IMG/VR virus record: IMGVR_UViG_3300048783_000050
Span: 1-60,959 of that record
DNA length: 60,959 nt
Reading direction: 5' to 3' (one strand)
From: a virus
Taxonomy: Duplodnaviria > Caudoviricetes
Shown: piece by piece, positions 5,904 through 33,040 of the stretch
Numbering within the stretch: position 1 is the stretch's first letter
Layout of the letters: the number at the start of each line of letters is the position of its first letter
The notes under the pieces: generated by a model
Database searches by the model: none
What the model was told of the DNA's origin: nothing
The model's input: only the letters and a program-made list of their open reading frames with translations
Program-made: the position numbers and the translations under genes

Positions 5904-6003
5904 TTGACCGAAGCGCCCATGACACGGTACTTTACAGGTACATCGGCACACCGGCCCCAGGCCCCAACCCGCGACGGCGTCGTGGGATGGGGCTCTTTGC
6001 GTT
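5904..6003 (+). promoter_or_regulatory. Late cassette copy A: promoter + conserved leader + terminator-like hairpin
   Basis: TTGACC-18-TACTTT, ACACCGGCCCCAGGCCC at 5948, hairpin closing GGGGCT followed by CTTTGCGTT. Confidence 0.7.
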
Positions 6004-6025
6004 CCGACCTGCGCGCGAGCCGCCC

Positions 6026-6640
6026 ATGATCGCCCACTCGCTGACCGGCACGGTGTTCTGCCAGCGGGAGACGTGCGGCCTCCCGCTGCCGGTCCTGGTG
6101 GCCGGGTCGAGCAAGGGCCCGGCGGTGGCCGTGACGGTGGTCCGATGCGTCCGATGCCGTACATGGTGGACGGTCGGCTTCCGCTGGGCTCCCATGGAGA
6201 GCGGACGGGTCGGCCGGGAGGTCGTCGGCGTCGTCGCTTCCGAGGCGCCCGGGATCCCGGGCCTCCGCCGCACCCTGCCCCACCTCACGAACTTCACGCT
6301 GGCGGAACGTCTCGCGATCCTTCAGGACTTCGTAGAGGATGGCAGGGAGGACGCCGAGGCGGTCGTGGACCCGGTGGAAGCCTTCCTGGTCGAGTGCTGC
6401 GTGCTGAACACCAGCGTGAGCACCCCGATCGGCGCTCTCCACCAGACCTATCGCGCGTGGTGCAGGGAACACGGCCTCACTCCGATCCCGCTCAAGCTGT
6501 TCGGCAAGGCGCTCCGGGAGCGCGGCGTGGAGTCGTTCAAGTCCACCGCTCGGCGGTGGCGCGGCGTGGCTCTCCGGGGCGGATTCGTTGGGAAGATGGC
6601 CCCGGAAAAATCGCCCGAAATCGCCCGGGTGGCCCGATGA
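6026..6640 (+). CDS. Zn-finger fused to D5/P4-primase C-terminal winged-helix-like domain
   Basis: CQRETC..CVRC, then DPVEAFLVECC..LHQTYRAWCREHG..FGKALRERG..WRGVAL. Confidence 0.65.
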   Translation: MIAHSLTGTVFCQRETCGLPLPVLVAGSSKGPAVAVTVVRCVRCRTWWTVGFRWAPMESGRVGREVVGVVASEAPGIPGLRRTLPHLTNFTLAERLAILQDFVEDGREDAEAVVDPVEAFLVECCVLNTSVSTPIGALHQTYRAWCREHGLTPIPLKLFGKALRERGVESFKSTARRWRGVALRGGFVGKMAPEKSPEIARVAR

Positions 6641-6969
6641 AGGCGCGGCGAGAGGAGTACGACCGGGGCAGTTCGGCGGCTCGCGGGTACGGCTCGAAGT
6701 GGCGCTCTGCTCGCGGCGCGTACCTGCTGGAGAACCCACTCTGCGTGCTCTGCCAGGAAGCGGGGAAGGTCGTGCCGGCCACGGTCGTGGACCACATCGA
6801 CCCTCACCGTCGGGATTGGGCGAAGTTCTGGAACCGCTTGAACTGGAGGGCGTCGTGCAAGACGTGCCACGACTCCGTGAAGCAGGCGGCGGAGAAGGGC
6901 GACGGCACACTGCGGGGCTTCGACGTGGAAGGGAACCCGCTGGACGCGAGCCACAGGTGGAACCAATGA
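6637..6969 (+). CDS. Packaging-associated HNH endonuclease
   Basis: RGYGSKW..NPLCVLC..ATVVDHIDPH..NWRASCKTCHDS. Confidence 0.9.
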   Translation: MKARREEYDRGSSAARGYGSKWRSARGAYLLENPLCVLCQEAGKVVPATVVDHIDPHRRDWAKFWNRLNWRASCKTCHDSVKQAAEKGDGTLRGFDVEGNPLDASHRWNQ

Positions 6970-7130
6970 GCGTACGCGACCCTCTCATCCCGCCCCTGTG
7001 GCAGGTGAACGTCCCGGTCGGGTCAAGGTCGTACGAGCCCGCGCAGCTGCGCGTCCGGTGCGGCTACTGCACCACGACGGCGGGACCGGGGCAACGGCGC
7101 TGCGACTCGTGCGGGGCGCCTCTCCCATGA
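6966..7130 (+). CDS. Small zinc-ribbon protein
   Basis: CGYC..CDSCGAPL; ATGA overlaps on both sides. Confidence 0.6.
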   Translation: MSVRDPLIPPLWQVNVPVGSRSYEPAQLRVRCGYCTTTAGPGQRRCDSCGAPLP

Positions 7131-7402
7131 CGAAACCGACCAAGCGGCATTTGGTGCAACTAGTCCTGGCGTACGACCGGAACGATTTCGACACGTACAA
7201 GGCGAACCACTGCCGCGAACCGGGCCTCGTCGCGCGGTGTGTCCGGTCGGTCGAGATGCTTGCCGAGTACACCTGCGACGAGGCGGAAGTGGTGGAGCTG
7301 ACGGATTGGGAGCAGGGGAAGCTGGCGCCGCACGCTCTGGTGATCCGTAGGACCATCGCCGCCCGCGGCTTCGCGGTCTCGTACGGAATGGGGCGCGGGT
7401 GA
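7127..7402 (+). CDS. Hypothetical protein
   Basis: ATGA coupling to upstream gene. Confidence 0.55.
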   Translation: MTKPTKRHLVQLVLAYDRNDFDTYKANHCREPGLVARCVRSVEMLAEYTCDEAEVVELTDWEQGKLAPHALVIRRTIAARGFAVSYGMGRG

Positions 7403-7436
7403 CGTGCCCGCTGGACCACAACCACAGGTGAGACCG

Positions 7437-7763
7437 ATGGAAGCGACCGAGACGGCGGTACAGATGCACCGGGCCAAGCTCACCGAGGATCTGGCGAGGG
7501 CTGAAGCCGACGCTCTGCGGAAGGCCACCGAGCGCGTGGCGGAGGATGCGAAGCGCGCCTTTATGTGGAAGCGCGACAGGGAGGCTGAAGGACTGCGGGC
7601 GCTCGCCGAGGAGTACGGGAAGGCGTACGAGTCCAGCCGTGCGAGGCTGCCGCTCGCGGAGAAGCAGTACGCGACGTTCAGGGCGGCGCTGGACAGCGCG
7701 CTGCAGCTGGATGCCTGCGGCGGTGGGCTGCGGGAGGCGGCGGCCCGCGAGGTGAAGCCGTGA
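7437..7763 (+). CDS. Hypothetical coiled-coil protein
   Basis: Helical Ala/Glu/Arg-rich ORF. Confidence 0.55.
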   Translation: MEATETAVQMHRAKLTEDLARAEADALRKATERVAEDAKRAFMWKRDREAEGLRALAEEYGKAYESSRARLPLAEKQYATFRAALDSALQLDACGGGLREAAAREVKP

Positions 7764-7939
7764 TCGGCCTCCGGCCCGGCGTGCGCGTGGTGGACGGCCA
7801 CACGTTCATCCGCGACGAGACCGGCGAGGACAGGCGCGCCCGGGCCGCGATGCGTCCGCCCTCGCCGAAGATGCGGAGAAGCCGTGTCGTTTTCACACGT
7901 CCGGATGGAAGTGTGGCGCCGGCGCCACAGTGTCACCCC

Positions 7940-8043: not shown

Positions 8044-8451
8044 ATGACGAGAGGCCGGAAACCCAAGCCCCCCGGGCTGCAAACGGTCCTCGGCAACCCT
8101 GGGAAGAGGAAACTGAAAGCCGACGTGGTTGATCCCGGCGGCGAGCCAGTCTGCCCCGCCTACCTGAAGGACCGCGCCGCCGAGCTGTGGGACGAGGTCG
8201 CGCCCGCGCTCATCGCCTGCAAGGTGCTGACGCAGGTGGACGCCTACACCTTCGCCGCCTGGTGCGCGCTGCAGGCGGAGTTCGAGGCGGACCCGGCAGG
8301 CATGCAGGCTTCCCGGATCGCGCAGATGCGCGCGCTCGCCTCCTCCTGTGGACTGGACCCCAGCTCCCGAACCCGGCTGAACATCGGTGGCAACGAAGGC
8401 GAGGAAGACCCCACGGCGGGCTACTTCACCGGCCCGCGAAAGACTGCCTGA
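8044..8451 (+). CDS. terS: Terminase small subunit, P27 family
   Basis: MTRGRKPKP..GNPGKRKL..P..L..A..W..D..C..GLDPSSRTRL. Confidence 0.92.
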   Translation: MTRGRKPKPPGLQTVLGNPGKRKLKADVVDPGGEPVCPAYLKDRAAELWDEVAPALIACKVLTQVDAYTFAAWCALQAEFEADPAGMQASRIAQMRALASSCGLDPSSRTRLNIGGNEGEEDPTAGYFTGPRKTA

Positions 8452-10231
8452 CGACCCGGCCACGCGGTACGCAGTGGGTGTTCACGAGGGGCGTATCCTG
8501 GCGGGCCCGCAGGTGCGGAACGCGTGCGCCCGGCACCTCCGCGACCTGGCTGAGGGCCCCGGGCGGGGGCTGGTGTGGGACGTGGAGGAAGTCGCATGGG
8601 TAGTGGGCTTCTTCCGGGACGTGCTCCGGCTGAACGGCGGCGAGCACGAGGGCCAGCCGTTCGTGCTGGAGCCGTGGCAGGTGTTCATCGTCGGGAGTCT
8701 CTTCGGCTGGAAGCGGAAGGCGACCGGGTACCGGCGCTTCCGAGTGGCGTTCATCGAGACCGGGAAAGGGTCGGGGAAGTCTCCGCTCGCGGCGGGGATC
8801 GCGCTCAAGTGCCTGGTGGCCGACGGCGAGCCCCGCGCCGAGGTGTACGCGGCCGCGGCGAAAAAGGACCAGGCCAAGGTCATGTTCCGCGACGCGGTGG
8901 CGATGGTGAAGCAGTCGCCGGCGCTGTCGTCCCGCCTCACTCTCTCGGGAGGGGAGGGCAACGAGCAGAACATCGCCCACCTCGCCAGCGGGTCTTTCTT
9001 CCGGCCGATCTCCAGCGAAAGCCAGGGCCGCGGCCAGTCTGGCCCGCGCCCGCACTGCGCCGTGCTGGACGAGGTGCACGAGCACCCGACGAACTCCACC
9101 GTGGAGTTCATGCGCGCCGGGACGAAGGGGCGCCGCCAGGCTCTCATCGTCCTGATCACAAACTCCGGCGTGGGGCGCTCCGGGGTCTGCTGGGACCACC
9201 ACGAATACGCCACCAAAGTGGCGGCCGGCGACGCCGAGGACGACTCGTATTTCGGGTACGTGTGTGGGCTGGACGAAGGGGACGATCCGCTGAACGACCC
9301 CTCATGCTGGCCGAAGGCGAACCCCTCCATGGGGGTGACCTTCCCGCCGAGCTACCTGGAAGAGCTGGTCCGCGAGGCGCGGGGGATGCCGTCGAAGGCG
9401 GCGAAGGTGCTGCGCCTAAACTTCTGCGTGTGGGTGGAGGCCGAGAATCCCTGGATCGACGGGGACCTCTGGCGCGCCTGCGAGCGGAAGCCGGCCGACT
9501 TCCCAACCGACGAGGAGCTGCGCGACCGGCCCTGTTTCCTTGCGCTCGACCTCTCTGGCAAGCTGGACCTGACGGCGCTGGCGGCGGTCTGGTCGGACGG
9601 GGACGGAGGGCGTGACGCACGTGTCTGGTTCTGGACCCCCGCCGGTTCGATGGACAAGCGGGAGCAGCGCGACCGCGTCCCGTACCGCGCATGGTCGCAG
9701 CGGGGCCACCTCTTCGCCGTCCCCGGGCTCTCCATCGACTTCGCCTTCATCGCGCAGTTCCTCGCAGAGCACGTCCTGCCGGTGTACGACGTGCGGGCGC
9801 TGGCGTTCGACCCGTACCGGATCCACGACTTCCTGCGCGAGCTGGCCGCGCTCGGCATCGACTGTTGGATCTGGGAGGGGCCGGAGGCAGAGCCCGGGGA
9901 TGGGCTCTGCCTGGTGATGCATTCGCAGGGCTTCAAGGGCGGCGCCAGGACGGACGGCCTCTGGATGCCCCGAAGCTTGGAGACGCTGGAGAGCGGCGTG
10001 CTGGGCGGTCACCTCCGCGTGCTGGAGAACCCGGTGCTCCGTTCCTGTTCTGCCTCCGCAGTGATCTCGCAGGATGCCGCGGAAAACCGCATGTTCGTGA
10101 AGCAGAAGAGCACCGGGCGGATCGACGGGCTTGTCGCGCTCGCCATGGGGGACGGCCTGGCGGACCAACTCGGGGAGGACACGGGGGGCGGGTCGGTGTA
10201 CGACGATCGGGGGATCCTGTTCTTCGGGTGA
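8387..10231 (+). CDS. terL: Terminase large subunit (start may be nearer 8445)
   Basis: LEPWQ, Walker A GKGSGKS, Walker B VLDEVHEH, W.KANP, LDLS..DLT, RIDGLVA. Confidence 0.96.
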   Translation: MATKARKTPRRATSPARERLPDDPATRYAVGVHEGRILAGPQVRNACARHLRDLAEGPGRGLVWDVEEVAWVVGFFRDVLRLNGGEHEGQPFVLEPWQVFIVGSLFGWKRKATGYRRFRVAFIETGKGSGKSPLAAGIALKCLVADGEPRAEVYAAAAKKDQAKVMFRDAVAMVKQSPALSSRLTLSGGEGNEQNIAHLASGSFFRPISSESQGRGQSGPRPHCAVLDEVHEHPTNSTVEFMRAGTKGRRQALIVLITNSGVGRSGVCWDHHEYATKVAAGDAEDDSYFGYVCGLDEGDDPLNDPSCWPKANPSMGVTFPPSYLEELVREARGMPSKAAKVLRLNFCVWVEAENPWIDGDLWRACERKPADFPTDEELRDRPCFLALDLSGKLDLTALAAVWSDGDGGRDARVWFWTPAGSMDKREQRDRVPYRAWSQRGHLFAVPGLSIDFAFIAQFLAEHVLPVYDVRALAFDPYRIHDFLRELAALGIDCWIWEGPEAEPGDGLCLVMHSQGFKGGARTDGLWMPRSLETLESGVLGGHLRVLENPVLRSCSASAVISQDAAENRMFVKQKSTGRIDGLVALAMGDGLADQLGEDTGGGSVYDDRGILFFG

Positions 10232-11308: not shown

Positions 11309-11410
11309 TTGCGCGGCGCGGGCTAACCATGTAGCTTTCCCGCTGACGGACAAACCACACCGGCCCCAGGCCCGCACCCTCACGACGAGGGAGCGGGCCT
11401 TTTTTGTTTG
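11309..11410 (+). promoter_or_regulatory. Late cassette copy B upstream of portal operon
   Basis: TTGCGC-17-TAGCTT, ACACCGGCCCCAGGCCC at 11357, hairpin AGGCCCGC..GCGGGCCT + TTTTTGTTT. Confidence 0.85.
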
Positions 11411-11425
11411 CCAGCCACCCCCGCC

Positions 11426-11644
11426 ATGCGCGAGCCCGGCACTCCCCAGTCGCCCGCCGATCCCCCGCCCCCCTCCCGTCTCGGGTCGGTGCTGCTGGAC
11501 AACGCCTGGGAGCTGGTGCTGCTGGTGGGGCTGGTGCTCTTCGGCGTGGGGGTCTCGCTGGCCTCCCTCCCCTGGGGTCTCGCGCTGGTGGGGCTGGTGC
11601 TGGTGTCGCTCGCCACCCTGCGCATCCGCCCGTGGGCTTCCTGA
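11426..11644 (+). CDS. Small membrane protein preceding portal
   Basis: Two strongly hydrophobic Leu/Val/Gly segments, overlaps the portal start. Confidence 0.7.
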   Translation: MREPGTPQSPADPPPPSRLGSVLLDNAWELVLLVGLVLFGVGVSLASLPWGLALVGLVLVSLATLRIRPWAS

Positions 11645-12978
11645 CACGGGGGAGCGCCACGCTGGCGCCGCGGGCGCTCCGGCTGGACGACGAGTCCGAC
11701 GTCGCCACGATCCTGCGGGTGACGGACGGCGGGGTCTCGACGAAAGCTGGCGTGGCGGTCGGGCCGGACTCTGCGCTGAAGTGCGCCGTGGTCTACGACT
11801 GCGTTCGGGTGATCGCGGAGGACGTGGCGAAGCTGCCGCTTATCCTGTACCGCCGAACCAAGGACGGCCGCGGCAAGGAGCGGGCGACCGACCATCACCT
11901 CTACGGGCTGCTGCACGACAAGCCGAACGACTTCCAGACGTCGTTCGAGTTCCGAGAGCAGATGCAGGGCTACCTGCCGCTCCGCGGGAACGCGCCGGCC
12001 CTGATCAACCGGGTGCGCGGCGAGGTGCGGGAGATCCTGCCTCTCCACCCGGACGAGGTGACGGTGAAGCGCGGGAGCGACTGGCGGGTCACGTACCGCC
12101 TGCGTGGGGAGGGGGAGGACCGGCCGGCGTCGGACATCCTCCATCTGCGCGGCCTCTCGACCGACGGATTCCGGGGCGTCTCCGTGATCTCGCTGGCCCG
12201 GGAGTCCATCGGGCTCGCGATGGCGATGCAGCAGCACGGCTCCCGCCTGTTCGCCAATGCGGCGCGGCCGTCCGGGGTGCTCACGTACCCGCACAAGTTC
12301 AAGGACGAGGCGGCCGCTAAGCGGTTGCGGGAGAGCTGGGAGAGCAGCGTGGGCGGCGAGAACATGCACCGCACCGCGCTCCTGGAAGACGGCGTATCCT
12401 GGCAGCAGATCAGCATGAACGCCGACGACGCGCAGTACGTGGAGTCGTGGGGCGTCCAGCTCTCCGACATCCCGCGCTGGTTTCGAATGCCTCCCCACAA
12501 AGTGGGCATCATGACCCAGGCGACGTTCAGCAACATCGAACACCAGGCGCTGGAGTACGTGATCGACACGCTCATGCCCTGGCTGGTGCGCTGGGAACAG
12601 CGGCTGAACATCACACTCCTCACCGCCCCCGAGCGCGCCGCCGGCTACTTCTTCGAGTTCCTGGTGGACGGGCTGCTCCGCGGGGACATCAAGACCCGGA
12701 TGGACGCCTACGCGGTCGGCATCCAGAACGGGATCTGGAGCGCGAACGAGTGCCGCGCCCGCGAGAACGAGAACCCCTACGAGGGCGGCGACGAGTACCG
12801 CGTGCCGCTCAACATGGGGCCGGCGAGCGGTGCCGCGCCGGGCGAGACGCCGCAAGAAGCGACGGCCAAGGTCGTCTCGTTCGCCGCTTTCCGCGACGCG
12901 AGAGAGCGCGGGGCAGATCTGGGCGAGGCGGCGCGCGCCTCAGCGGATGCGTACCGTGCCGTGCTGACGACGGCCTGA
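11632..12978 (+). CDS. Portal protein, HK97 family
   Basis: AVVYDCVRVIAEDVAKLP, LRGNA, DILHLRG..DGFRGVS, DIPRWFRMPPHKVG, TFSNIEHQ, LLRGD. Confidence 0.96.
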   Translation: MGFLTRGSATLAPRALRLDDESDVATILRVTDGGVSTKAGVAVGPDSALKCAVVYDCVRVIAEDVAKLPLILYRRTKDGRGKERATDHHLYGLLHDKPNDFQTSFEFREQMQGYLPLRGNAPALINRVRGEVREILPLHPDEVTVKRGSDWRVTYRLRGEGEDRPASDILHLRGLSTDGFRGVSVISLARESIGLAMAMQQHGSRLFANAARPSGVLTYPHKFKDEAAAKRLRESWESSVGGENMHRTALLEDGVSWQQISMNADDAQYVESWGVQLSDIPRWFRMPPHKVGIMTQATFSNIEHQALEYVIDTLMPWLVRWEQRLNITLLTAPERAAGYFFEFLVDGLLRGDIKTRMDAYAVGIQNGIWSANECRARENENPYEGGDEYRVPLNMGPASGAAPGETPQEATAKVVSFAAFRDARERGADLGEAARASADAYRAVLTTA

Positions 12979-12991: not shown

Positions 12992-13909
12992 ATGAAGCTG
13001 ATCCCCGCCGTCACCCCGCCCGCCCCCCGCGCCGCCCACGGCGAGCGCCCGCGGAAGCCGTTCGAGATCCGCGCCGCGACGACCGGCGAGGCGGAGGTAC
13101 TGATCTACACGGAGATCAGCTACTGGTACATGGACCCGGAGTGGTGGATCCGCGACCTCATGGCGATCACGGCGCCGGTCATCCACGTCCGGATCAACTC
13201 CCCGGGCGGTGACGTTTGGGCGGGGGTCGCGATCTACAACGCGCTCGTGCGTCACGGGGCCAGAATCATCGTGCATGTGGACAGCCTCGCGGCCTCCATC
13301 GCCTCGCTGATTGCTATGGCGGGAGACGAGATCCGCATGTCGAAGGGGTCGCATATGATGATCCACGATCCGCTTGTCGGGACCTATGGGAACGCCGCTT
13401 ACTTGCGGAAGGTGGCCGGGGTTCTGGAGCAGGTGGGCGGATCCATGGTGGAAATCTACGCTGACCGAACCGGGGTGGCGCCGGAGCAGGTCGCCGAGTG
13501 GATGAAGGAAGAGAAGTTCTTTACGGCGAAGGAAGCACGCGAAGCCGGCCTCGCGGACGCGGAGGATAACACGGAGGCGATCGCCGCCAAGTTCGACCTC
13601 TCCATGTACGCCAACGCGCCGGACGCCCTCAAGGGCCAGGCGCCCGCGGCCGAGCGGGAGAAGCCTGACACGATCAGGAAGTTCGAGACCGGGCTCCGGG
13701 AGGAGCTGGGGTTCTCGCACGCCGAGGCGCGAGCGATCGCCGCCTCCGGCTTCAAGGCAGCGTCGGACCCTCGGGATGAGGACGGCGGGCCGAATCGGTC
13801 CACCACCGCAGTGCAGCCCCCCCCGGCCAACGACCCGGCTGCCGAGGCGCTGCTCGCATCCATCCTCACGGCGCGGCTTCGGCTTCGCGCCTCCGCAGGG
13901 AGACGCTGA
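12992..13909 (+). CDS. ClpP-like prohead maturation protease
   Basis: RINSPGGDV, AASIASLIAMAGD, MMIHDP, AKEAREAGLAD. Confidence 0.94.
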   Translation: MKLIPAVTPPAPRAAHGERPRKPFEIRAATTGEAEVLIYTEISYWYMDPEWWIRDLMAITAPVIHVRINSPGGDVWAGVAIYNALVRHGARIIVHVDSLAASIASLIAMAGDEIRMSKGSHMMIHDPLVGTYGNAAYLRKVAGVLEQVGGSMVEIYADRTGVAPEQVAEWMKEEKFFTAKEAREAGLADAEDNTEAIAAKFDLSMYANAPDALKGQAPAAEREKPDTIRKFETGLREELGFSHAEARAIAASGFKAASDPRDEDGGPNRSTTAVQPPPANDPAAEALLASILTARLRLRASAGRR

Positions 13910-13910
13910 C

Positions 13911-15131
13911 ATGGCGACCATCGAGACGCTCGTAGCCCACTTCGACACCTTCGAGGGGGAGCTCCGCGCCGCGCTGGACAAGCAGTCCGGCGAGATCGAG
14001 AAGTACGGGAAGTCCACCGAGGAGACCGGCAAGCAGATCGACAAGATCACCGCCGCCCTCCAGGACATCGGGGAGGAGCTGAAGGAGGTGCAGACCAACG
14101 TCCGCGCCATGGAAACCAACCAGAACCGGCCGGGGATGCCCGGCTCGGACGAGGACCGGCGCAGCGTCGGCGCCCGCTTCGCGCAGTCCGAGGAGATCAA
14201 GGCGATGGCGAAGTCCAGCGCCATGAACTCCGGTCCGGTGGACGTGGGCAGCTTCTTCGGCCCGCGCGCGATCGACTCCGGGTCCGGGAGCGCCGGGGTG
14301 CTGGTGGAGCCGGAGCGCGTGCCGGGGATCATCACCCCGCCGCGGCAGGGGTTCACTCTCCGACAGCTCCTCAACGTCCGGCCGACCACCAGCAACTCCA
14401 TCGAGTACATCCGCCAGACCGGCTTTACCAACAACGCGGCCCCCGTCGCGGAGGGCGCGGTCAAGCCGCAGTCGGTCCTGACATTCGACCGCCGGACCGC
14501 CCCCATCGAGGTGATCGCGCACTGGGCGCAGATCACCCGGCAGATCGTCGCCGACGCGCCGCGCCTCCAGACGATCGTGGAGGGGGAGCTGAAGTTCGGC
14601 CTGGAGCTGAAGGAGGAGGCGCAGTTCCTCCGCGGGAACGGCTCCTCCCCGAACCTCCAGGGGATCATGACCGACCCCGCGGTCCAGAACTACGCCTGGT
14701 CGGACGGCAAGGTGGGCGACACCAAGATCGACGCGCTCCGCCGCGCCATGCTGAAGGGGCGGAAGGCCAAGTACCCGGCCACCGGGATCGTGCTCAGCCT
14801 GGAGGACAAGGCGGACATCGACACGCTCAAGGGCTCCGACGGGCACTACATCTGGGTCAACGTGGTGGACACCACGGGGATGCGCCTGTGGGGCCTTCCT
14901 GTGGTGGAGAGCGACTCGCTGGTGGAGAACGAGTTCGTGGTCGGCGCCTTCGGCCTGGGCGCGACGGTGTGGGACCGCGAGGAGACGACCGTCCGCATCA
15001 CCGACAGCCACGCGGACTACTTCATCTACAACAAGCTGGTGGTGCTGGTCGAGGAGCGCGTCGGCATCACCATCGAGCGCCCCGAGGCGTTCGTGATCGG
15101 CAACTTCGACAACGAGCCGGTCGCGCCGTGA
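13911..15131 (+). CDS. Major capsid protein, HK97 fold
   Basis: N-terminal coiled-coil delta domain, VAEGAVKP, QFLRGNG, DGHYIW..LWGLPVV, EER..RPEAF. Confidence 0.96.
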   Translation: MATIETLVAHFDTFEGELRAALDKQSGEIEKYGKSTEETGKQIDKITAALQDIGEELKEVQTNVRAMETNQNRPGMPGSDEDRRSVGARFAQSEEIKAMAKSSAMNSGPVDVGSFFGPRAIDSGSGSAGVLVEPERVPGIITPPRQGFTLRQLLNVRPTTSNSIEYIRQTGFTNNAAPVAEGAVKPQSVLTFDRRTAPIEVIAHWAQITRQIVADAPRLQTIVEGELKFGLELKEEAQFLRGNGSSPNLQGIMTDPAVQNYAWSDGKVGDTKIDALRRAMLKGRKAKYPATGIVLSLEDKADIDTLKGSDGHYIWVNVVDTTGMRLWGLPVVESDSLVENEFVVGAFGLGATVWDREETTVRITDSHADYFIYNKLVVLVEERVGITIERPEAFVIGNFDNEPVAP

Positions 15132-22028: not shown

Positions 22029-22042
22029 CGGCGCGGGTCACG

Positions 22043-23432: not shown

Positions 23433-23484
23433 GGGGCGATGCTTCGGGGATCGGGCGGGGGAGGGTTGGGGCGCCGCCCCCTCC

Positions 23485-23650: not shown

Positions 23651-23776
23651 GTGCGCAAGCTCCTGTCTCGCCTGTTCCGCCGCCGTGACCTGTCGGCAGC
23701 GCGCACGCACTTCCGCACCGGTGCGTGCTGGAGCGCGTGCGCCGGTGCTGTGGGGCGGCAGTCCGCCAGCCGGTAG
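23651..23776 (+). CDS. Possible 41-aa basic peptide (MRKLLSRLFRRR..)
   Basis: GGAGG RBS at 23641, GTG start, stop 6 nt before next ATG. Confidence 0.4.
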   Translation: MRKLLSRLFRRRDLSAARTHFRTGACWSACAGAVGRQSASR

Positions 23777-23782
23777 CGTTCC

Positions 23783-24208
23783 ATGCGCAACGTCCCGAAG
23801 GTGCTCTACAACGGCACCACCCTCACCTTCACCCTCCCGATGCGCCCGTTCACCCCCGGCACCAAGGCCATAGGGGGGCACGGGGAGAGCGGGGCCGGGG
23901 TGCCGTGCAAGTTCGTGATCCGGCGGGACCGCTTCTTGGACGTTGTGCTGCGCTTCTACGAGTCGGAGGGGCCGGCGGTGCGCGCCTGGCTTGAGTGGGC
24001 GCAGGACGCGACGCCCGGCGCGTTCACCGTCTGGCCGGACGCCGCGGTGCCCGGGACGTCCAAGAGCAGCTACCTCGTCTCGCCTCAGGTCGGAGAAGAC
24101 ACCCAGCCAACGCACGACCAGTTCGAGGGCACCTTCGAGCAGCGGGTCAAGATCCGCTCCGCCGACGGCTCCCCCTACGACTGGCAGTATTGGGGGGTTT
24201 CGCCGTGA
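23783..24208 (+). CDS. Putative distal tail protein
   Basis: Size and position before tail tip gene. Confidence 0.6.
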   Translation: MRNVPKVLYNGTTLTFTLPMRPFTPGTKAIGGHGESGAGVPCKFVIRRDRFLDVVLRFYESEGPAVRAWLEWAQDATPGAFTVWPDAAVPGTSKSSYLVSPQVGEDTQPTHDQFEGTFEQRVKIRSADGSPYDWQYWGVSP

Positions 24209-27200
24209 AAACGTGGTGGCTGACCTTCTACGCCGACGACGACACAACGGCCGTCGCGGAGTGCTCCACCGATCTCGCGCACTCGCATCCCTTTCTGCGC
24301 GCCCCGGAGGGCGGCGCCGAGGCGGACGTGGACCTGCTGCGCGGGCAGGCGAAGATCTCGCTGGTGAACGTGCAGGTGCAAGACAATCCCACCAACCCGG
24401 AAGACCAGTCCAGCGGGTGGCTGACGGCGATCCTTGCGGACGCCTCCGGGGAGACCGCAAGAATCGGGCGGCGGGTAAAGCTGGAGGAGGCGGACAGCCC
24501 GGCCGACCCCCGCGTCACGGTGACGGACGGGGTGATTGGGAGCGTGGAGCTGGACGCGGACCTCGTCTCGTACAACCTGGGCGTGCGCGATATCCGCGAG
24601 CGCTCCCGCGAGGCGAAAGCCTTCGAGCGCGGCGGCACCTCCACGGTCTGGCCTCGCGGGGTGCTGAACGGCTACGGCCTGCTCCCCGGCGGTGGATGGC
24701 TCCAGCCCCCCACGACCCCCGCGCGCGGAACGTTCAACCTGGCCGGGCCTGGCTGGGGGCTCGTCAAGCTCGTGCGCACCGACGCGACGAAGCCGCACCT
24801 GGTGCTCACCCAAGCCATGCGGGACGCGGTGGCGCCGACGTGGTCCGAAGAACACCTCCGCTACGAGCTGTACGGCGTGGACGTGCTCTGGCGGCTGGTG
24901 GGCGGAACGACGTGGACGCGCCTCACGAAGATGGAGGTGTGGGACCCGGCGGTCCGCTCCGGCATCCGCGGCGTCTCCCTCTTCGACACCGACCCGGCCC
25001 GCATCAAGGCCGCGGACGGGCGGATGGTGGACGGCGACATCATCGACCTGGTCCACCTCCGGGCCGCGGACACAGGTGGGGTTCCGGCCAACGGCGCCGC
25101 GGTGGAGGTGTTGGTACTGCACGTTGGCGCGCCGACGAAGGCGTACCCGTTCCACTTCGAGGGCCGCGCCGGCGAGCTTCTGCGCAACCTATACCGCGGG
25201 GACTACTCGCTGCGAGATCCGCGCATCCGCTACGACGAGGCGGCCCTCCTCGCGCTTGCGGAGCCGGTCCTACTCCGCCAGGCGGAGCCGGTGGACGACA
25301 TGCGCGAGTGGGTCGAGAAGAATATCTACCAGCCGCTCGGCGCCGCTCCTGCCCTGAACGACGCGGCGGAGATTTCCCCGGTCCGCTACGACCTGCCCAG
25401 CGTGGAGGCGGACCTCCCGGAATTCAACGACAGCAACACGGCGGAGGACGCCGGTTGGCTCCACGACGGCGACGCGGTCAACCGGGTAGTGTTCTCCTAC
25501 CTCCGCGAGCACCGCGTCCCCACGGACCTGGACCTGCTGGGAGAGGTGAGCGCGGGGGACGGCATCGCGGAGCAGCCCGTGACCGTCCAGCCGCAGGCCG
25601 GCGGCTCCGTCGCCCTGTTGGGGGAGCAGCTGCTGGAGATCAAGCCGTCCACGATCCGCACGCTGGTCGGCGAGCGCGGAGACGTGCGGGGCGGGGACGT
25701 GCAGAGCGACGCCGGCTACCGGCTGGCGCTCGCCCGTGGATACCAGGCGCTGGACCGCTTCCGCTTCGGCGGCCAGTACATCACCGCGCGCCGGATGCGG
25801 AGTGCCGGCGAGCTGAAGCCTGGTGCCTGGTGCCTGGTCTCGCTGTCGTGGCTCCCCGACTACAAGACCCGCAAGCGAGGGATGGACCGGCTGGCGCAGG
25901 TTGTCACCGCCCGCAACGTCGGCGCCTGGCGCGAGTACCGCTTGGTGGACGCCGGCCCCGCAAACCAGCCCCTCGCGCAGCCCACGCTCGGCACCCCCAC
26001 CGCCAGCGCGGACGGCCTGGTCTCCGTCCCCGTCACGATGCTGCCGGTCGGCGGCGAGGCCCGCGTGGACGTCGCGATCTCCGACACCCTGCCGGCGACG
26101 GACTCCCCGCTCTGGACCTTCCTCGGCCGCACGGCCGCGCTCGCGACGCTCACCACGTCCCCGCAGCTGGAGGGCGGCATCGCCTGGGTCCGCGCCCGCG
26201 GCGAGGCGCCCGGCCGTCTCCGCTCCGCCTTGACCACGCCCGTCTCCGTCGCGATCCCCGCCGGCCCTCGGGTGCGCCAGGTCCGGGCGCTGATCGCCGA
26301 CGACGGAAGCGCTTCAGCGCAGGCCACCCCGAACGCCTATGCGTCGGGGTTCCGGATCTTCTACGGCACCCACCCCGCGGGCACCGCCACGCCCACGCTC
26401 TCCGGGCACCTGGACGTCGCGGCCACCCCGGACCCCGTCGCCCTACCGGTGACGGTGGATCCGGGCGAAGCGCTCGCCATTGAAGTGGAGCCCTGGACAG
26501 GATGGACCGGCTCGGCGGTTTCGGGGACGGCCGGTGCGCGCGTACCCGGCTCGGCGCTGCGGGAGGCGGGCGGCGGCACGGACACGCTCTTCGCCCGCGG
26601 CACCGCCACGATGTCGAGTCCCACCGCAGCGCAGATCCCGGTGCAAGTGGACTCCGTGGTGCCGGTGGATGGGACGGCAACGCTCCTGGAGGTGCTGGGG
26701 TCGGCGACTCTCGCCGCGGGTCCCGCCGTGGGCGTCGCAAGCCCCACGGGCACCGTCTGGACGTTCAACCGCGGCCCGGAGAACGGCGGGCCTGGGCAGG
26801 CGCTGTTCCGGATCGACGCCTCCGGTTACGTCTCCGATCCGGTGCCCATCGTGATTCCGGAGCAGGGGCGGGACACGGTGGGGCTGGGGCTGGTCGTGGA
26901 GCAGGTCGCCGAGAGCGACGCCACCGTGACGGTTCGCGCGAAGGCGTGGGACCCGTACCCGCAAGGCGCCAGCAGCGTGACCGTGAGGCCCGTGGGCGCC
27001 TTCGCCGGTAACGTCACGCCCTCCACCGCGCAGGCGCTCACGCCCACCAGCAGCTACGAAACCACGGCGCACGTGGACTTCGTGATCGCCAAGGCGCCTG
27101 CCGGCGGAGGCGTGCGGCGGGTCAACTTCCTCGCCTCCGCGGCGTCGCGGGTGGACGGGGTGGACGCGGTGGACGTGCCTGCGCAGGACCCGGAGATCCC

Positions 27201-28938
27201 CACCGCGGCCGCGCAGCCGCCGGTGGCCTGGACGGAGCTGGTGCAGAGCGTGGTGCTGCTGGAGAAGCACGCGCTACACGGCCAGCTCGGCGTGGGGGGC
27301 GACGGTCCGCTGGAGTGGCGCTACCGGGTGGAGACCGACACCGCCGCTGCGGCGACAGCCTCCGCCTGGTCCGCGGCCGCGCTCCCTGTGACGGTCACGG
27401 TGCTGCGCGACGCTCGGCAGATGAAGCGGCTGATCCTGGAGGTGCGCGACGCCGACGGGAACCCGGGCCGCTGGGAGGTGGACGTCGCCCCCCGGCAGGA
27501 CCGCGACTGGACGAGCGGCGGCCAGGGTGGGCGCGGGGTGCAAGAGGGGAACGAGCGGGGCGGCATGGGCGGCGTGCCGGGGCGCATCAACATGGGTGCG
27601 CCGGTCACCACCCCGGACGGGGTGTACGCGCTGCTCAACCCGCTCACGCGGCGGATGGGCACGGCGCTGCTGGGACCGAACGGCACCGGCGCCGCGGACA
27701 TCGACATCTGGAGCACGCGGGCGGGCCTGGGGTTCACCGCGGGCGGCTTCGTCGCTCAGAACCTGCCGCTGGCCCGCATCCGGCCGGCGGTGTCGCTGAT
27801 CGGCCCGACCGGGCGCGCCGACACCTCGCAGCTCACCGAAGACGGCGAGGTGCTGGTGGACACGGCGACGGAGGTCGCGGCGCTTCTCGACGGCGGCGAG
27901 GTGCGGACGGCCGCGGACCAGGCGCTGCTCGGGCTCACCTCCGCGGGGGACGTGCTCCGGCCGGTGCCCCGCGACAAGGCGCTCTACTACGTGCCGGGGA
28001 TGGACGACGCCACCGGCCTTCTCGACGGCTCGCAGCCGGTCGCCGGGACGGGGGCGTTCGTCGCCACCTCGGACGACTCGCTGGCGCTGTTCACGGACGG
28101 CGCGCAGACGGTCGAGTACGCGGAGCGCGCGGGCGTCGGCTTCGACAGCTCCGGCCGCGTGGTGGGCGAGGTGATGCCGTTCGCCACCTGCAACGGCTAC
28201 GAGTTCGACGCGATCAGCACCGGCGGCGCGCGCGCGGAGCCGACGCTCGCCGGCCCGCTCCAGTTCGCCTCCGCGGTGACCATCCAGTCGCTCAACCTCG
28301 CCCGCGGCGTGCGGATCGAGTCCGGCGTGGACGGCCAGGTCGTGACGTTCTCGCCCGCCCTCCCGGCAGCGCCCGCCTTCGCCCCGCTCGGCGGCATCGG
28401 CTTCCACCCGGACCTCATCGCCTCGCCGCACGGTGCCGTCGTGGAGGCGGTGGGGTTGGACACCAACGGCTTCACGCTGCGCGCCGTGACGCGCGCCGCC
28501 GTGGGGACGATCACCGCGCGCTCCGCCAGCTTCTCCGGCGAGTACGCCACCAAGAGCCTGAGCGCGCAGGCGTACGACGACAGGTACATCGTCAACGTGA
28601 GCGGGACGGTGTATCAGGCGGCAGCGCCGCTGGGCGAGGAGCCGATCCCGGGGTCGCTCACGTTGTACTTTCTGGTCAACACAGGCTCCGGCGAAATCCT
28701 TCGTGCCGAGCGGACGATCAGCAACTCCGGCACGTCACCGCTCGCCTACTCGCGCGCGGTCGAGATCGCGTTGGACGGGGTCGGGAGCGGCGCTACTTTC
28801 CGGGTGTGGGTGGCCGCGACGACCGGGCTCGGCGGAACCGTCGCCCGCAACTCGGTCACGTGGGGCGAAGCCTCCGCCCCGGCGGAGCGTTCGATGGGCG
28901 CGTGGCCTGTCGCGTACCTTCTGGCGAACGGAGCATGA
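24205..28938 (+). CDS. Large tail tip/host-specificity protein
   Basis: About 1577 aa; hub-like N-terminus, FN3/Ig-like beta-rich middle; GTGA overlap. Confidence 0.75.
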   Translation: MKTWWLTFYADDDTTAVAECSTDLAHSHPFLRAPEGGAEADVDLLRGQAKISLVNVQVQDNPTNPEDQSSGWLTAILADASGETARIGRRVKLEEADSPADPRVTVTDGVIGSVELDADLVSYNLGVRDIRERSREAKAFERGGTSTVWPRGVLNGYGLLPGGGWLQPPTTPARGTFNLAGPGWGLVKLVRTDATKPHLVLTQAMRDAVAPTWSEEHLRYELYGVDVLWRLVGGTTWTRLTKMEVWDPAVRSGIRGVSLFDTDPARIKAADGRMVDGDIIDLVHLRAADTGGVPANGAAVEVLVLHVGAPTKAYPFHFEGRAGELLRNLYRGDYSLRDPRIRYDEAALLALAEPVLLRQAEPVDDMREWVEKNIYQPLGAAPALNDAAEISPVRYDLPSVEADLPEFNDSNTAEDAGWLHDGDAVNRVVFSYLREHRVPTDLDLLGEVSAGDGIAEQPVTVQPQAGGSVALLGEQLLEIKPSTIRTLVGERGDVRGGDVQSDAGYRLALARGYQALDRFRFGGQYITARRMRSAGELKPGAWCLVSLSWLPDYKTRKRGMDRLAQVVTARNVGAWREYRLVDAGPANQPLAQPTLGTPTASADGLVSVPVTMLPVGGEARVDVAISDTLPATDSPLWTFLGRTAALATLTTSPQLEGGIAWVRARGEAPGRLRSALTTPVSVAIPAGPRVRQVRALIADDGSASAQATPNAYASGFRIFYGTHPAGTATPTLSGHLDVAATPDPVALPVTVDPGEALAIEVEPWTGWTGSAVSGTAGARVPGSALREAGGGTDTLFARGTATMSSPTAAQIPVQVDSVVPVDGTATLLEVLGSATLAAGPAVGVASPTGTVWTFNRGPENGGPGQALFRIDASGYVSDPVPIVIPEQGRDTVGLGLVVEQVAESDATVTVRAKAWDPYPQGASSVTVRPVGAFAGNVTPSTAQALTPTSSYETTAHVDFVIAKAPAGGGVRRVNFLASAASRVDGVDAVDVPAQDPEIPTAAAQPPVAWTELVQSVVLLEKHALHGQLGVGGDGPLEWRYRVETDTAAAATASAWSAAALPVTVTVLRDARQMKRLILEVRDADGNPGRWEVDVAPRQDRDWTSGGQGGRGVQEGNERGGMGGVPGRINMGAPVTTPDGVYALLNPLTRRMGTALLGPNGTGAADIDIWSTRAGLGFTAGGFVAQNLPLARIRPAVSLIGPTGRADTSQLTEDGEVLVDTATEVAALLDGGEVRTAADQALLGLTSAGDVLRPVPRDKALYYVPGMDDATGLLDGSQPVAGTGAFVATSDDSLALFTDGAQTVEYAERAGVGFDSSGRVVGEVMPFATCNGYEFDAISTGGARAEPTLAGPLQFASAVTIQSLNLARGVRIESGVDGQVVTFSPALPAAPAFAPLGGIGFHPDLIASPHGAVVEAVGLDTNGFTLRAVTRAAVGTITARSASFSGEYATKSLSAQAYDDRYIVNVSGTVYQAAAPLGEEPIPGSLTLYFLVNTGSGEILRAERTISNSGTSPLAYSRAVEIALDGVGSGATFRVWVAATTGLGGTVARNSVTWGEASAPAERSMGAWPVAYLLANGA

Positions 28939-30306: not shown

Positions 30307-31563
30307 ATGGCCCTCTCCCGCAGTTCCGCGCTCTGGTACTGGACCAGCCGGAACCCCTACTCCCCGGCGGCCACGGTCGGCGGGCCGGTGCAGTTCTCGC
30401 GCACCGGGACCGCCACGGTCGTCGATCAGCAAGGCTGGGCAGGCGACGTGCCGGCAAGCACGCCGCGGCATGAGTGGGTGACGGTGGACGGCGTTCGCCG
30501 GGCGGCGCTGCTCCTGGAACCGGCGCGCATGAACCTCGTGCGCACCTCCGAGCCGCACCTGGGGCAGGTGAAGCTGTACTCCACGAACACCTCCGGCATC
30601 GAGGTGGACCACGCGGGGTTCGGGACGGGGATCCGGGTGCCGGCCGGGACGGGGGTCGAAGAGTACGTCTACGTGGACGCGGACCCGATCTCCACCGGGT
30701 ACCACACGATCAGTGCGCACGTGGAGATGCTGGACGGCGGCGGTCCCCCGGCGCTTGCGACCTCCGCGTCCGGCGGAGACTTCGCGCTGGTGCTCAACAA
30801 CCAGTACGCGACTCTGGCGACACGCGTGGAGGCATTGGGTCGCAGCGGGATGTACCGGGTGGAGGCGACCGTCAACGTGGGGACGGTCGGCACCGACAAC
30901 CACGGACTCACCCGGTCCACCGCCCACACCCAGCGCGCGTTCGACGTCACCGGTTGGCAGGTGGAAGCGGGGGCGTATAGCACCTCGTACATCCCCACCA
31001 CGGGGACCACCACGCCGCGCCTCGCGGAGCTCTGCGGCTGGACGGGCGGGCCGCTGCCGCAACAGGACATGGCGATGCACCTCCGCATCATCAAGGGGCA
31101 CGCTGGCGACGGTGGTGCGGGCGACGCGGTGATCCTCCACATGGGGGCCGCCAGCGACGCGAACCCCCGCGGCAACCTCGTCTTCAGCGGCGCCGGGGTG
31201 TACTGGTACTACCACAACGGCACCACCTTCGCCGCATCCAGCATTGTGCTCCCGAGCGAGCGGGGGCAGGTTGTGGACCTGGACCTCCTGCGCTTCGCGG
31301 ACGGCTCCGGTCGGCTTGTGGGCTCGGTGGACGGCGGGTCGGTTGTAGGCGCCGCGCTCACGACGCTGGCCCTCCCCGCCGCGGAGGCGGGGAGGGCGAT
31401 CTACTTCAACGCGCGCGGCGACGGAGGGTTCCCCGGCTCGAATCGGTTCCTGGACTTCTGGGTTGTGAAGGCCGGCGACCTCGCCGCACCCGCCACCGCA
31501 GGCGGCGACCAGGCGCGCGCCGACGAGCTGCGCGGCTTCCTCCTCTCGCCCGCGGGAGACTGA
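30307..31563 (+). CDS. Fibre/head-spike-like protein with ConA/LamG-like domain
   Basis: FSRTGTAT..LLLEPARMNL..QVEAGAYSTSYIPT..R motifs. Confidence 0.7.
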   Translation: MALSRSSALWYWTSRNPYSPAATVGGPVQFSRTGTATVVDQQGWAGDVPASTPRHEWVTVDGVRRAALLLEPARMNLVRTSEPHLGQVKLYSTNTSGIEVDHAGFGTGIRVPAGTGVEEYVYVDADPISTGYHTISAHVEMLDGGGPPALATSASGGDFALVLNNQYATLATRVEALGRSGMYRVEATVNVGTVGTDNHGLTRSTAHTQRAFDVTGWQVEAGAYSTSYIPTTGTTTPRLAELCGWTGGPLPQQDMAMHLRIIKGHAGDGGAGDAVILHMGAASDANPRGNLVFSGAGVYWYYHNGTTFAASSIVLPSERGQVVDLDLLRFADGSGRLVGSVDGGSVVGAALTTLALPAAEAGRAIYFNARGDGGFPGSNRFLDFWVVKAGDLAAPATAGGDQARADELRGFLLSPAGD

Positions 31564-31565
31564 CC

Positions 31566-32126
31566 ATGTTCGGCATCTGGAAGGCAACGGCGGAGGAGTG
31601 GGCTGCGTGGGCCGTGACGGCGGGCTCCACCCTGTCGGAGGGTACCGAGTTCGAGCGGGCGGCGACGGCGGGTGAACTCCTCCAGCGCGGCGCGATGGTG
31701 GCGCACGTGGACCCGGACGGCGGCGACGCGCTCTTCCACGCCGCGGGCGCCGGCCCCTTCCCGGGCACCCTGCTGTCCGACCCGGCCGCCGTGGGCCAGC
31801 GGGAGCGGTATCGCTCCATCCCCGCGGAGGACAAGCCCGGGGTCTACGGCGCGGCCGTGCTCCGGTACCCGGACGGCGGGGACCTGCGGGGGGACTGCTG
31901 CACAGCGACGGGCTGCGAGCTGCCGGCGTACTGCCCGGCCACGGGGCTGCACTCCAGCGCGCCGGAGGACGACGTAGCGGCCGCCGTGGTGCTCGCGGAG
32001 GCGTGGGCGCTCGTCGCTGCGGAGGAGGCGGCGCTCGTGCGGGTGCCGATGGTGGAGGTGGAGGAGAGCGACGTGGTGGTGGAGGACTCGGTGCGGCTGG
32101 TGCGGTTCGCGGGGGAGTCGGAGTAG
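31566..32126 (+). CDS. Hypothetical protein
   Basis: Clean acidic ORF following fibre gene. Confidence 0.6.
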   Translation: MFGIWKATAEEWAAWAVTAGSTLSEGTEFERAATAGELLQRGAMVAHVDPDGGDALFHAAGAGPFPGTLLSDPAAVGQRERYRSIPAEDKPGVYGAAVLRYPDGGDLRGDCCTATGCELPAYCPATGLHSSAPEDDVAAAVVLAEAWALVAAEEAALVRVPMVEVEESDVVVEDSVRLVRFAGESE

Positions 32127-32151
32127 GCGGCCAAATCGCAAGGAGGCAGCG

Positions 32152-32421
32152 ATGCGCTACATGAGATGCAGGTGCGGGAAGCTGAAGTCGTGGACCTCGA
32201 TGGGCTCGCCACCCTGCCGCGCCTGCGACGAGTGCGGCGTCACGCGGGCCGAGAGCCCGGCGGGCCACCGCGAGCCGGCGCCGCACAACTGGGAGCAGGA
32301 GTGGAAAATCGACCCGAAGACGGGCGAGCGCTGGCGGGAGTGGGTATGCACGGCGTGCCTCACCCGCGAGTCTCCCAGGCAACCGGGGCCGCCCGCCCGG
32401 GAGACTGACCGGGTCGCGTGA
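32152..32421 (+). CDS. Small Cys-rich zinc-binding protein
   Basis: AGGAGG RBS; CRC..CRACDEC..H..CTAC. Confidence 0.65.
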   Translation: MRYMRCRCGKLKSWTSMGSPPCRACDECGVTRAESPAGHREPAPHNWEQEWKIDPKTGERWREWVCTACLTRESPRQPGPPARETDRVA

Positions 32422-32509
32422 AGCTTGTCCGAAGACCGCTGGTTTCGGGAAGACCGTCTCCGTAGATTGGACGCACCAGCAGGTGCGCCCCCTTCCGACG
32501 AGAGGCACG

Positions 32510-32911
32510 ATGATCGGCGGCGAAATCACGATCGACACCCTGCGCGGCATGGCGGCCCGCGTGAAGCCGGAAACGAGCCTCGTGGCCGCCTTCATCGTGG
32601 ACCGGACCCGCGCCCCGGGCGAGATGGTGCGGGTGGAGCCGGAGGCGAGCGCCGCCGCGGTGCAGGCCATGTTCCCGCTCGTGGGCGGCGAGGTGCAGGC
32701 GATCCGGGAGCGCGAGCCGGGCCGTGCCGTCATGGTGCTGGCCGACCGCGACTGGCGATCCCTCGTGAAGAGCCTGCCGCCGACCGATGGGGACGTCTTC
32801 CGGCACACGGCGACGGATCGGTTGATGGGCGCCCCCATCTTCTACGTGCCCGACCCTTCGCTCGTCCCCGAGTCCGCGCGCTGGCCCGGGCCGATGGACC
32901 TCGACACGTAG
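32510..32911 (+). CDS. Hypothetical protein
   Basis: GAGG RBS; C-terminal LMGAPIFY motif. Confidence 0.55.
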   Translation: MIGGEITIDTLRGMAARVKPETSLVAAFIVDRTRAPGEMVRVEPEASAAAVQAMFPLVGGEVQAIREREPGRAVMVLADRDWRSLVKSLPPTDGDVFRHTATDRLMGAPIFYVPDPSLVPESARWPGPMDLDT

Positions 32912-32920
32912 CCGCAACGC

Positions 32921-33040
32921 TTGTCCGAAGCCCCGTAGCGGATTAGCTTTTCAGTGCGCCCGATGTAGGGGCGCAACGACACGAACACACCGGCCCCAGG
33001 CCCGCGCCCTCACGATGAGGGAGCGGGCCTTTTTTGTTTT
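32921..33040 (+). promoter_or_regulatory. Late cassette copy D upstream of holin operon
   Basis: TTGTCC-17-TAGCTT, extra hairpin at 32955-32975, ACACCGGCCCCAGGCCC at 32987, hairpin + TTTTTTGTTTT. Confidence 0.85.

Follow-up and report, generated by a model that had tools for sequence, protein, structure and literature searches.

Four repeated leader units, hereafter cassettes, were analyzed in IMG/VR record IMGVR_UViG_3300048783_000050, a stretch of 60,959 nucleotides (nt) that was studied at its full length (the window) and that, judging from its genes, encodes a tailed phage with HK97-type head genes. Each cassette consists of a promoter-like site, an invariant 17-nt sequence (the 17-mer), and a hairpin followed by a T-tract, and each is placed directly ahead of a block of late genes. 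The best reading of this anatomy is a distributed late switch: the four units would be conditional terminators that are opened by a sequence-specific factor and that gate four late blocks, an interpretation to which we assign a probability of roughly 45%. All functional statements made here are readings of the sequence anatomy of a single uncultured genome, from which we infer promoter activity, termination, the existence of the factor, and the recognition of RNA rather than DNA. The cassettes would thereby represent terminator-gated late transcription, a known kind of control, with a mechanism that is well-defined but unproven.

Anatomy of the four cassettes

An earlier annotation of this DNA (the original prediction) had described four copies of an invariant 17-mer, and exactly four perfect copies are present in the window, all on the + strand, at 5948-5964 (cassette 1), 11357-11373 (cassette 2), 23580-23596 (cassette 3), and 32987-33003 (cassette 4). 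When up to three mismatches were allowed on both strands, five matches were obtained against 1.09 expected, a count reached by none of 100 shuffles; the fifth match (11590, − strand, three mismatches) is intragenic and is probably due to chance. With one mismatch allowed, the two halves of the 17-mer have no further intergenic site in the window, and the 17-mer is missing from the early regions and from the surroundings of the two divergent promoter pairs (40.1 and 47.9 kb).

Promoter-like sites on the + strand start exactly where they had been predicted, i.e., at 5904, 11309, 23536, and 32921. The first (5904-5933, TTGACC-18-TACTTT) begins 12 nt past the stop codon of open reading frame (ORF) 5575-5892, the second (11309-11337, TTGCGC-17-TAGCTT) has a TG just before its −10 element, the third (23536-23564, TTGACC-17-TAGCTT) is divergent from a − strand site at 23513-23485, and the fourth (32921-32949) reads TTGTCC-17-TAGCTT. 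The pattern TTGNNN-16..18-TANNNT has 12 matches in both strands (122 kb), four of which are the cassettes, while six of the other eight are in or at the edge of predicted intergenic gaps (40.1, 47.9, 51.15, and 23.5 kb); three of the window's four TAGCTT hexamers are at cassettes. With the thresholds of a simple consensus scan, neither the promoters nor the terminators of the cassettes are picked up. Several −10 elements in the window are of the TAGNNT type, which we take to be actinobacterial, and the host may be an actinobacterium. The distance between the −10 element and the 17-mer is 14, 19, 15, and 37 nt in copies 1 to 4, respectively, and the terminator follows ~20-45 nt downstream of the promoter-like site.

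This distribution of sites bears on a stoperator-type roadblock, in which an immunity repressor would bind the asymmetric 17 bp downstream of each late promoter and block elongation in the lysogen. Stoperators typically number 20 or more sites per genome, spread over early and late regions. As with those of Cluster A mycobacteriophages (PMC9283540), the sites found here are asymmetric, intergenic, distributed over the genome, and in one orientation to transcription, and they lie downstream of promoters, several −10 elements being of the TAGNNT type. Stoperators, however, are many, are not fused to terminators, and stop transcription rather than release it, whereas here there are only four sites, all in late leaders. 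The roadblock would also leave the fused terminator at every site unexplained, as derepressed transcripts would still stop there. We regard this explanation as very unlikely.

Downstream of the promoter-like sites, the 17-mer runs into a predicted hairpin on the + strand. The putative terminator of cassette 1 (5960-6003) combines a hairpin at 5960-5994 (−27.9 kcal/mol), with a longer stem than in the other copies, and a weak T-tract, CTTTGCGTT. Those of cassettes 2 (11369-11409; hairpin 11369-11399, −25.1 kcal/mol, then TTTTTTGTTT), 3 (23592-23633; hairpin 23592-23622, −26.2 kcal/mol, then TTTTTTTGTTT), and 4 (32999-33040; hairpin 32999-33029, −26.5 kcal/mol, then TTTTTTGTTTT) have a T-tract of the form T6-7 G TTT. 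The description of a GC hairpin with a T-tract is thus accurate for copies 2-4, while for copy 1 it applies to the hairpin and not to the poorer tract. Stems had also been described as varying with pairing kept, and indeed 47 of 48 stem cells pair over the four copies and 3 of 12 pairs are changed on both sides, but these compensatory changes come almost wholly from copy 1.

A stringent terminator scan of the whole + strand returned four sites, namely cassettes 2-4 and a T-run in the late genes, which suggests that strong canonical terminators are almost confined to these leaders. The T-run and a hairpin (18625-18680; GGG then T6 G) are within the overlap of ORFs 18235-18714 and 18557-18985, just upstream of a 774-amino-acid gene, and are probably a tail-chaperone frameshift site rather than a terminator. 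Another hairpin, which lacks the 17-mer, is located on the + strand between convergent genes at the end of the late region (39120-39161) and is probably the terminal terminator. A covariance model (R1) built from alignment A2 of the four copies scored the cassettes at 68-85 bits when run on both strands with filters off; its next-best matches were the reverse strands of the cassette hairpins, followed by an unrelated hairpin that, with 20 bits, is the best other match on the + strand. CRISPR-repeat mimics, RNase III sites, attC or diversity-generating retroelement hairpins, and packaging sites were rejected on anatomy alone, as was a bidirectional terminator, there being no upstream A-tract.

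Conservation of the 17-mer is sharply bounded. All six copy pairs are 100% identical over the 17-mer and only 7-43% identical over the preceding 14 nt, so that the left edge of similarity falls on the same nucleotide in every pair. The stem-loop of copy 1 differs from that of copy 2 at ~38% of aligned positions (by eye) and by a 4-nt insertion, and yet its 17-mer is unaltered, including five nucleotides that belong to the stem. By our own arithmetic, the chance that 17 positions stay unchanged at this divergence is 0.62^17, or ~3e-4, which points to recognition of the sequence of the 17-mer itself, beyond its fold alone.

The intergenic gap occupied by each cassette measures 131-144 nt, and the gene behind it starts 20-30 nt past the T-tract; every cassette is co-oriented with the + strand late block that it precedes. 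Behind cassette 1, ORF 6026-6640 (204 amino acids, with a unique N-terminal half and a Pox_D5-type winged helix) is followed by an HNH gene (6637-6969), two genes without assignment, TerS (8044-8451), and TerL (8387-10231). The block of cassette 2 starts with a 72-amino-acid membrane-like ORF (11426-11644) and continues through the portal gene (inside frame 11404-12978), the protease (12992-13909), the major head protein (13776-15131), head-tail connectors, and tail genes to 21299, and includes a probable tail-chaperone slip site at ~18668 followed by the 774-amino-acid gene, which is presumably the tape measure. Cassette 3 precedes the stretch 23651-24208, with GGAGG, a GTG start at 23651 (41-amino-acid ORF), and gene 23783-24208; then come a frame open over 23995-28938 (1647 amino acids as listed, with an unclear true start) and a tail protein (30307-31563). 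Cassette 4 is followed by a 225-amino-acid multi-pass membrane protein (33056-33733) and by large proteins with weak lyase and fibre-adaptor matches, to 39096. The packaging, portal/head, and distal tail operons of the original prediction are thus recovered as late blocks, whereas its holin label corresponds to a sub-threshold Pfam match of 33056-33733 (18.2 bits, cut-off 22.2).

Where a strong host-type promoter is followed closely by a strong terminator and then by an operon, transcripts reach the operon only when the terminator is conditional or lets some of them pass. Cassette 3 is placed in the gap between divergent genes, directly behind four − strand genes, and so its terminator ends no + strand gene. 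As the succession of promoter-like site, invariant leader, and strong terminator just before the first gene of four co-oriented blocks makes sense only if termination is conditional, the distributed late switch originally proposed is partly supported and, on its anatomy, is the best reading. The four − strand genes themselves form a 2.2-kb block (21296-23513) between the presumed tape-measure gene and cassette 3, with its own promoter-like site (23513-23485). They comprise an ORF that reads as lipoprotein-like (21296-21706), a 74-amino-acid ORF, a PIN-domain protein (22043-22624; Pfam, 8.8e-10), and its overlapping upstream partner (22614-23513). The block has the look of a moron expressed in the lysogen, or else of a defence or toxin-antitoxin unit.

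A predicted two-state fold in the leader

The 17-mer holds two self-complementary GGCC units, which can pair with each other as a small GGCC-CCA-GGCC hairpin with a predicted energy of −5.7 kcal/mol when alone. The small hairpin takes its 3′ unit from the base of the terminator 5′ arm (four of the five bottom nucleotides) and thereby excludes the bottom four terminator pairs. In all four copies it is within the best fold of the first 31 nt, i.e., of the RNA present before the 3′ arm is made, and the price of enforcing it in the full element is 4.7 kcal/mol for copy 1 and 6.3 kcal/mol for each of copies 2-4. The remaining upper hairpin is then left 4 nt from the U-tract; if instead the whole 17-mer is held single-stranded, 14-17 kcal/mol are removed and 5 nt are left before the U-tract. 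A terminator hairpin must abut its U-tract, and either state should therefore abolish termination. The pairing that had originally been put forward as a switch, between the first GGCCC and the 3′ arm, does not have this effect, as the hairpin would again abut the U-tract and termination would be retained; in the folding model, the pairing that would matter is the one between the two GGCC units themselves.

The antiterminators of the RAT (ribonucleic antiterminator) elements bound by BglG, LicT, and SacY, and those of ANTAR targets (paired hexaloops), are protein-stabilised hairpins that overlap a terminator, with a RAT of ~29 nt. In its predicted folds, each cassette has the anatomy of a RAT-type attenuator that depends on a protein, its early structure being too weak to prevail over the terminator unless a ligand assists it. 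The likeness extends to the weak 5′ hairpin, which overlaps a strong terminator in its 5′ arm (predicted here in all four copies), and to a short element that is repeated before several operons and acts locally, with one site per operon. Unlike RAT, the element found here has 17 nt with a 4-pair stem and precedes phage late genes instead of catabolic operons, and the CAT_RBD and ANTAR domains were not found in the window.

We propose that each cassette is a promoter-proximal attenuator leader that would gate its own late transcription unit, these units being packaging, head and proximal tail, distal tail, and a membrane-protein/fibre-like block. The host-type promoter would fire, and by default the RNA would end after ~60-80 nt at the hairpin and U-tract. 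The 17-mer would serve as the sensor, with the small GGCC-CCA-GGCC hairpin forming first on the nascent RNA, and a factor, most likely an early RNA-binding protein of the phage, would lock this small hairpin or keep the 17-mer single-stranded. As the remaining upper hairpin would then be 4-5 nt from the U-tract, RNA polymerase could read into the operon. Such an action would be local and would call for one copy and one promoter per operon, which would account for four copies where lambda needs one. An antisense RNA partner for the 17-mer was searched for in the window, and the best candidate (−33.0 kcal/mol) was within the range of shuffles (−31.2 to −33.3 kcal/mol), which favours a protein over an RNA as the factor.

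The same folds can be read without any factor, with the cassettes as leaky attenuators or insulators that let a fixed fraction of transcripts pass, set the dose of each module, and stop upstream read-in. The 17-mer would then tune co-transcriptional folding, or the copies would be young or gene-converted. Kinetic partitioning of this kind is conceivable, as the two folds differ by just 4.7-6.3 kcal/mol and the small hairpin forms first, and both the 95% identity of copies 2 and 4 and the lack of an identified factor are in line with it. However, an identity edge at the same nucleotide in six of six pairs, with 7-43% just upstream, and a copy 1 whose stem has strongly diverged but whose 17-mer has not, are difficult to accommodate, and late structural and lysis-type genes of a temperate phage on constitutive promoters would, by established logic, be harmful in the absence of an off state. 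Taken together, we consider factor-independent leakage to be rather unlikely.

A third possibility is that the terminated RNA of ~60-80 nt is itself the main product, and that the cassettes encode four sibling small RNAs (sRNAs) acting in trans on host or phage mRNAs, e.g., at G-rich ribosome-binding sites, a role that could coexist with attenuation. A conserved unpaired 5′ seed followed by a Rho-independent terminator is the layout of many base-pairing sRNAs, and here only the seed is invariant. There is also a precedent in the terminated PR′ transcript of Stx phages, which is a regulatory sRNA (PMC7547250). Trans-acting sRNAs would nevertheless not need to be placed directly before, and co-oriented with, the first late gene in all four cases; moreover, no target site beyond chance was detected in the window, and no Rfam family reached its threshold. 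As a main function, we judge this to be quite unlikely.

Candidate factors and comparison with known systems

In lambda, late genes are controlled by a constitutive promoter, PR′, a terminator, tR′, and the antiterminator Q. At the sequence level the cassettes resemble this system in having a host-type promoter and then at once an intrinsic terminator ahead of late genes, in the short terminated RNA that is expected when the switch is off, and in the position of the first unit at the junction of replication-side and packaging genes. They differ from it in that there are four units, each with its own promoter, instead of one; the conserved element is not part of the promoter but of the leader transcript, where it overlaps with the stem of the terminator; and its spacing to the promoter varies, with no shared −10-like hexamer seen by eye between the −10 element and the 17-mer in the four cassettes. 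No Q-family gene was found either: six-frame searches of the window gave no match at E ≤ 1 for three Q families (Pfam Antiterm, Phage_antitermQ, and Phage_antiter_Q), and none for NusG (Pfam), AlpA, Sigma70_r2, Sigma70_r4_2, CAT_RBD, or ANTAR. The original statement that no known regulator is recognisable can be maintained for all of these families, RinA/ArpU being without a model of their own. A sub-threshold Sigma70_r4 match (20 bits) was obtained in a helix-turn-helix gene at 47994-48524, and a NusG paralogue may still be encoded by the host, the search having covered the window.

Three + strand ORFs stand out as candidates. The first, ORF 5575-5892 (105 amino acids, isoelectric point (pI) of 4.7, acidic), is the last early-side ORF before cassette 1 and occupies the place of Q in lambda, directly ahead of the first late promoter. 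Among 5.8 billion clusters it has two homologues, one of them 53% identical and encoded on a 2.3-kb contig; it has no match in PDB, and its alpha/beta Atlas model resembles only phage proteins without assigned function. The second, ORF 6026-6640, is the first gene behind the sole cassette with a weak T-tract and carries a Pox_D5-type DNA-binding domain (4.5e-09). This winged helix is a common C-terminal domain of primases (921 library matches, almost all to residues ~100-190), the N-terminal half is covered by almost no library match, and no relative of the ORF was found in viral contigs. The third, ORF 41254-41415 (53 amino acids, arginine-rich, pI of 12.0), was picked by composition from a block of small genes (40.2-46 kb) downstream of a promoter-like site at 40139; it is reminiscent of N-type antiterminators with their arginine-rich RNA-binding motifs, and no relatives of it were detected.

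The second candidate bears on a rival explanation based on DNA, in which a processive antiterminator would be loaded in the manner of Q or AlpA: a protein would read the 17-bp duplex behind an RNA polymerase transcribing the hairpin and U-tract, join the elongation complex, and make it resistant to this and later terminators. The distance from the 17-mer to the hairpin and U-tract is fixed in all four copies, as this would require, and the GGCCCCA/GGCCC direct repeat could be two DNA half-sites. ORF 6026-6640, with its DNA-binding domain and its position first behind the cassette with the poor T-tract, would be the obvious candidate, and the weak terminator of cassette 1 would then provide a self-priming loop. 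On the other hand, its winged helix is the common primase domain, the three Q families and AlpA are not found in the window, the promoter to 17-mer distance varies (14-37 nt), and the logic of the sigma-dependent pause of Q does not apply, there being no shared −10-like pause element by eye. A processive mechanism would also not need four sites with four promoters. Overall, DNA loading appears unlikely.

Local opening of each terminator, as in the distributed late switch, can likewise be compared with other systems built on repeated leader elements. Lambda N with nutL/nutR and the putL/putR elements of HK022 act on early operons, processively, on terminators further downstream. They share with the cassettes multi-copy promoter-proximal leader elements that allow, or here would allow, terminator read-through, and a small arginine-rich early ORF (41254-41415) is present in the window; no boxA-like sequence was seen here by eye, however, and Rfam gave nothing above threshold. 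Specialised NusG paralogues act with leader elements, as in ops/RfaH, UpxY, and LoaP (PMC11685472, PMC5449661). These have in common with the cassettes one short element repeated in the leaders of several long operons, with one dedicated elongation factor that is recruited, or here would be recruited, by it, but their elements are not fused to a terminator stem, and no NusG-like gene was found in the window. Late promoters read by an alternative sigma factor differ as well, since the promoters here look host-type and no phage sigma region 2 or 4_2 was found. In the phage-antitermination literature searched, which lay mostly outside subscription journals, no multi-copy promoter–leader–terminator unit heading phage late operons was encountered.

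No close relative of the phage was found, as tblastn matches to isolated phages were below 60% identity and blastn matches covered at most 16% of the query, and a blastn search of cassette 2 against 50,697 phage records gave only E ≥ 1. For a wider comparison, loci of portal relatives were collected (80 of 110 viral-contig loci kept, at ≤46% identity, and six loci from 185,579 species genomes, at ≤40%). Among 53 GC-rich loci of this set, a terminator scan returned 13 sites in 12 loci, none of which carries the motif, and no terminator was found within 1.5 kb upstream of the portal match, suggesting that the boundary of terminase and portal genes is an unusual place for a terminator. One match of R1 at a portal-relative locus (L089, 18.5 bits) was rejected as an unrelated short terminator. 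In Rfam 15, none of 4227 families reached its gathering score in the window, and only chance-level matches appeared at E ≤ 5; among them, a match of cassette 4 (32916-33035) to the C-rich Xanthomonas sRNA sX13 (21 bits against a gathering score of 50, E = 2) was taken as chance.

Several of the results weigh against a distributed late switch opened by a phage factor. No relative with the cassette emerged: R1 gave nothing with E < 0.1 in the 86 portal-relative loci, exact matches to the 17-mer in IMG/VR viral contigs amount to four single chance occurrences, none with a hairpin after it, and a relaxed pattern matched eight chance loci in JGI metagenome contigs, none of them cassette-like. The conservation of the 17-mer was thus judged only among four paralogous copies of one genome. 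Copies 2 and 4 share 95% of their positions over 63 nt, so that a recent duplication or gene conversion may lie behind their likeness, and gene conversion probably accounts for some of the identity among copies. The small hairpin has only four pairs, and a DNA site would fit the same letters as the RNA recognition that we favour. With respect to the factor, ORFs 5575-5892, 6026-6640, and 41254-41415 were singled out only by position or composition, and since the record is ~79% complete, the regulator could lie outside it. Finally, a single sequencing run with this DNA is listed, a DNA run of a soil metagenome that may be its source, and no RNA run.

Genome context and implications

The record is classed as a provirus with a rating of ~79% completeness, has a G+C content of ~70%, and originates from a soil metagenome. 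Contigs of the soil DNA run have the same sequence, with no informative variants, and the sole difference within a cassette (11386) results from cassette 4 being aligned onto cassette 2. A Logan contig of 60,879 bases from this run independently covers the stretch unbroken, while the longest contig carrying the window's proteins in a protein index has 118,898 bases. In view of this longer contig, and as the window proteins scanned include no recognisable integrase, both the classification as a provirus and the actual ends of the element are uncertain. No tRNA gene was detected in the window.

Outside the late blocks, replication-side genes occupy 1-5.9 kb, and the stretch from 48 to 61 kb carries early-type genes, among them a methylase and a Rad52-like recombinase. 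Just upstream of ORF 5575-5892, ORFs 5116-5421 and 5425-5571 are in the same frame and are split by one TAA (5419-5421), and may be one gene with an in-frame stop or two genes; a guess that this pair (5116-5571) is RusA-like found no support when it was tested. Two divergent promoter pairs, at 40.1 kb (40105-40167) and 47.9 kb (47910-47953), are good host-type promoters, e.g., TTGACA-17-TATACT. The former separates a − strand gene (39604-40059, 151 amino acids, helix-turn-helix-like), which reads as a probable repressor, from the small + strand genes. The latter drives the gene at 47994-48524 (177 amino acids), which combines an N-terminal sigma-r4-like helix-turn-helix with a C-terminal half that is nuclease-like by eye.

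A second repeated leader is present among the small genes (40536-40609 vs 41210-41283, and 40203-40248 vs 40571-40616). The ~30 nt before the starts of + strand genes 40580 and 41254 are alike (more loosely also 41443 and 43152), and the similarity extends into the first codons (families D6 and D12). This leader, at 40-43 kb, recalls the start-associated sequences of some mycobacteriophages.

The timing of late genes in temperate phages is understood for few model systems, and the regulator is unknown in most environmental phages. In this context, the genome described here offers an unusually clean and self-contained design, with four identical 17-nt sensors, four strong terminators, and two folds ~5-6 kcal/mol apart. 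In its most specific form, which we consider possible but doubtful, this design would be a late switch new to phages: an early protein of no known family would bind a 17-nt RNA element locally and lock a 4-pair antiterminator hairpin at four operon heads, so that four constitutive promoters would release, in parallel, the modules for packaging, head, tail, and lysis/fibre; the ~60-80-nt leaders made in the lysogen may double as a set of related C-rich small RNAs. Should the terminators turn out to be leaky with no factor involved, what remains would be a terminator module that is repeated in an unusual way. If the factor is found, it would represent a new antiterminator family and a compact, orthogonal part for synthetic biology, in which one protein opens N terminators, and local multi-site antitermination would stand as an alternative to the single processive switch of lambda.

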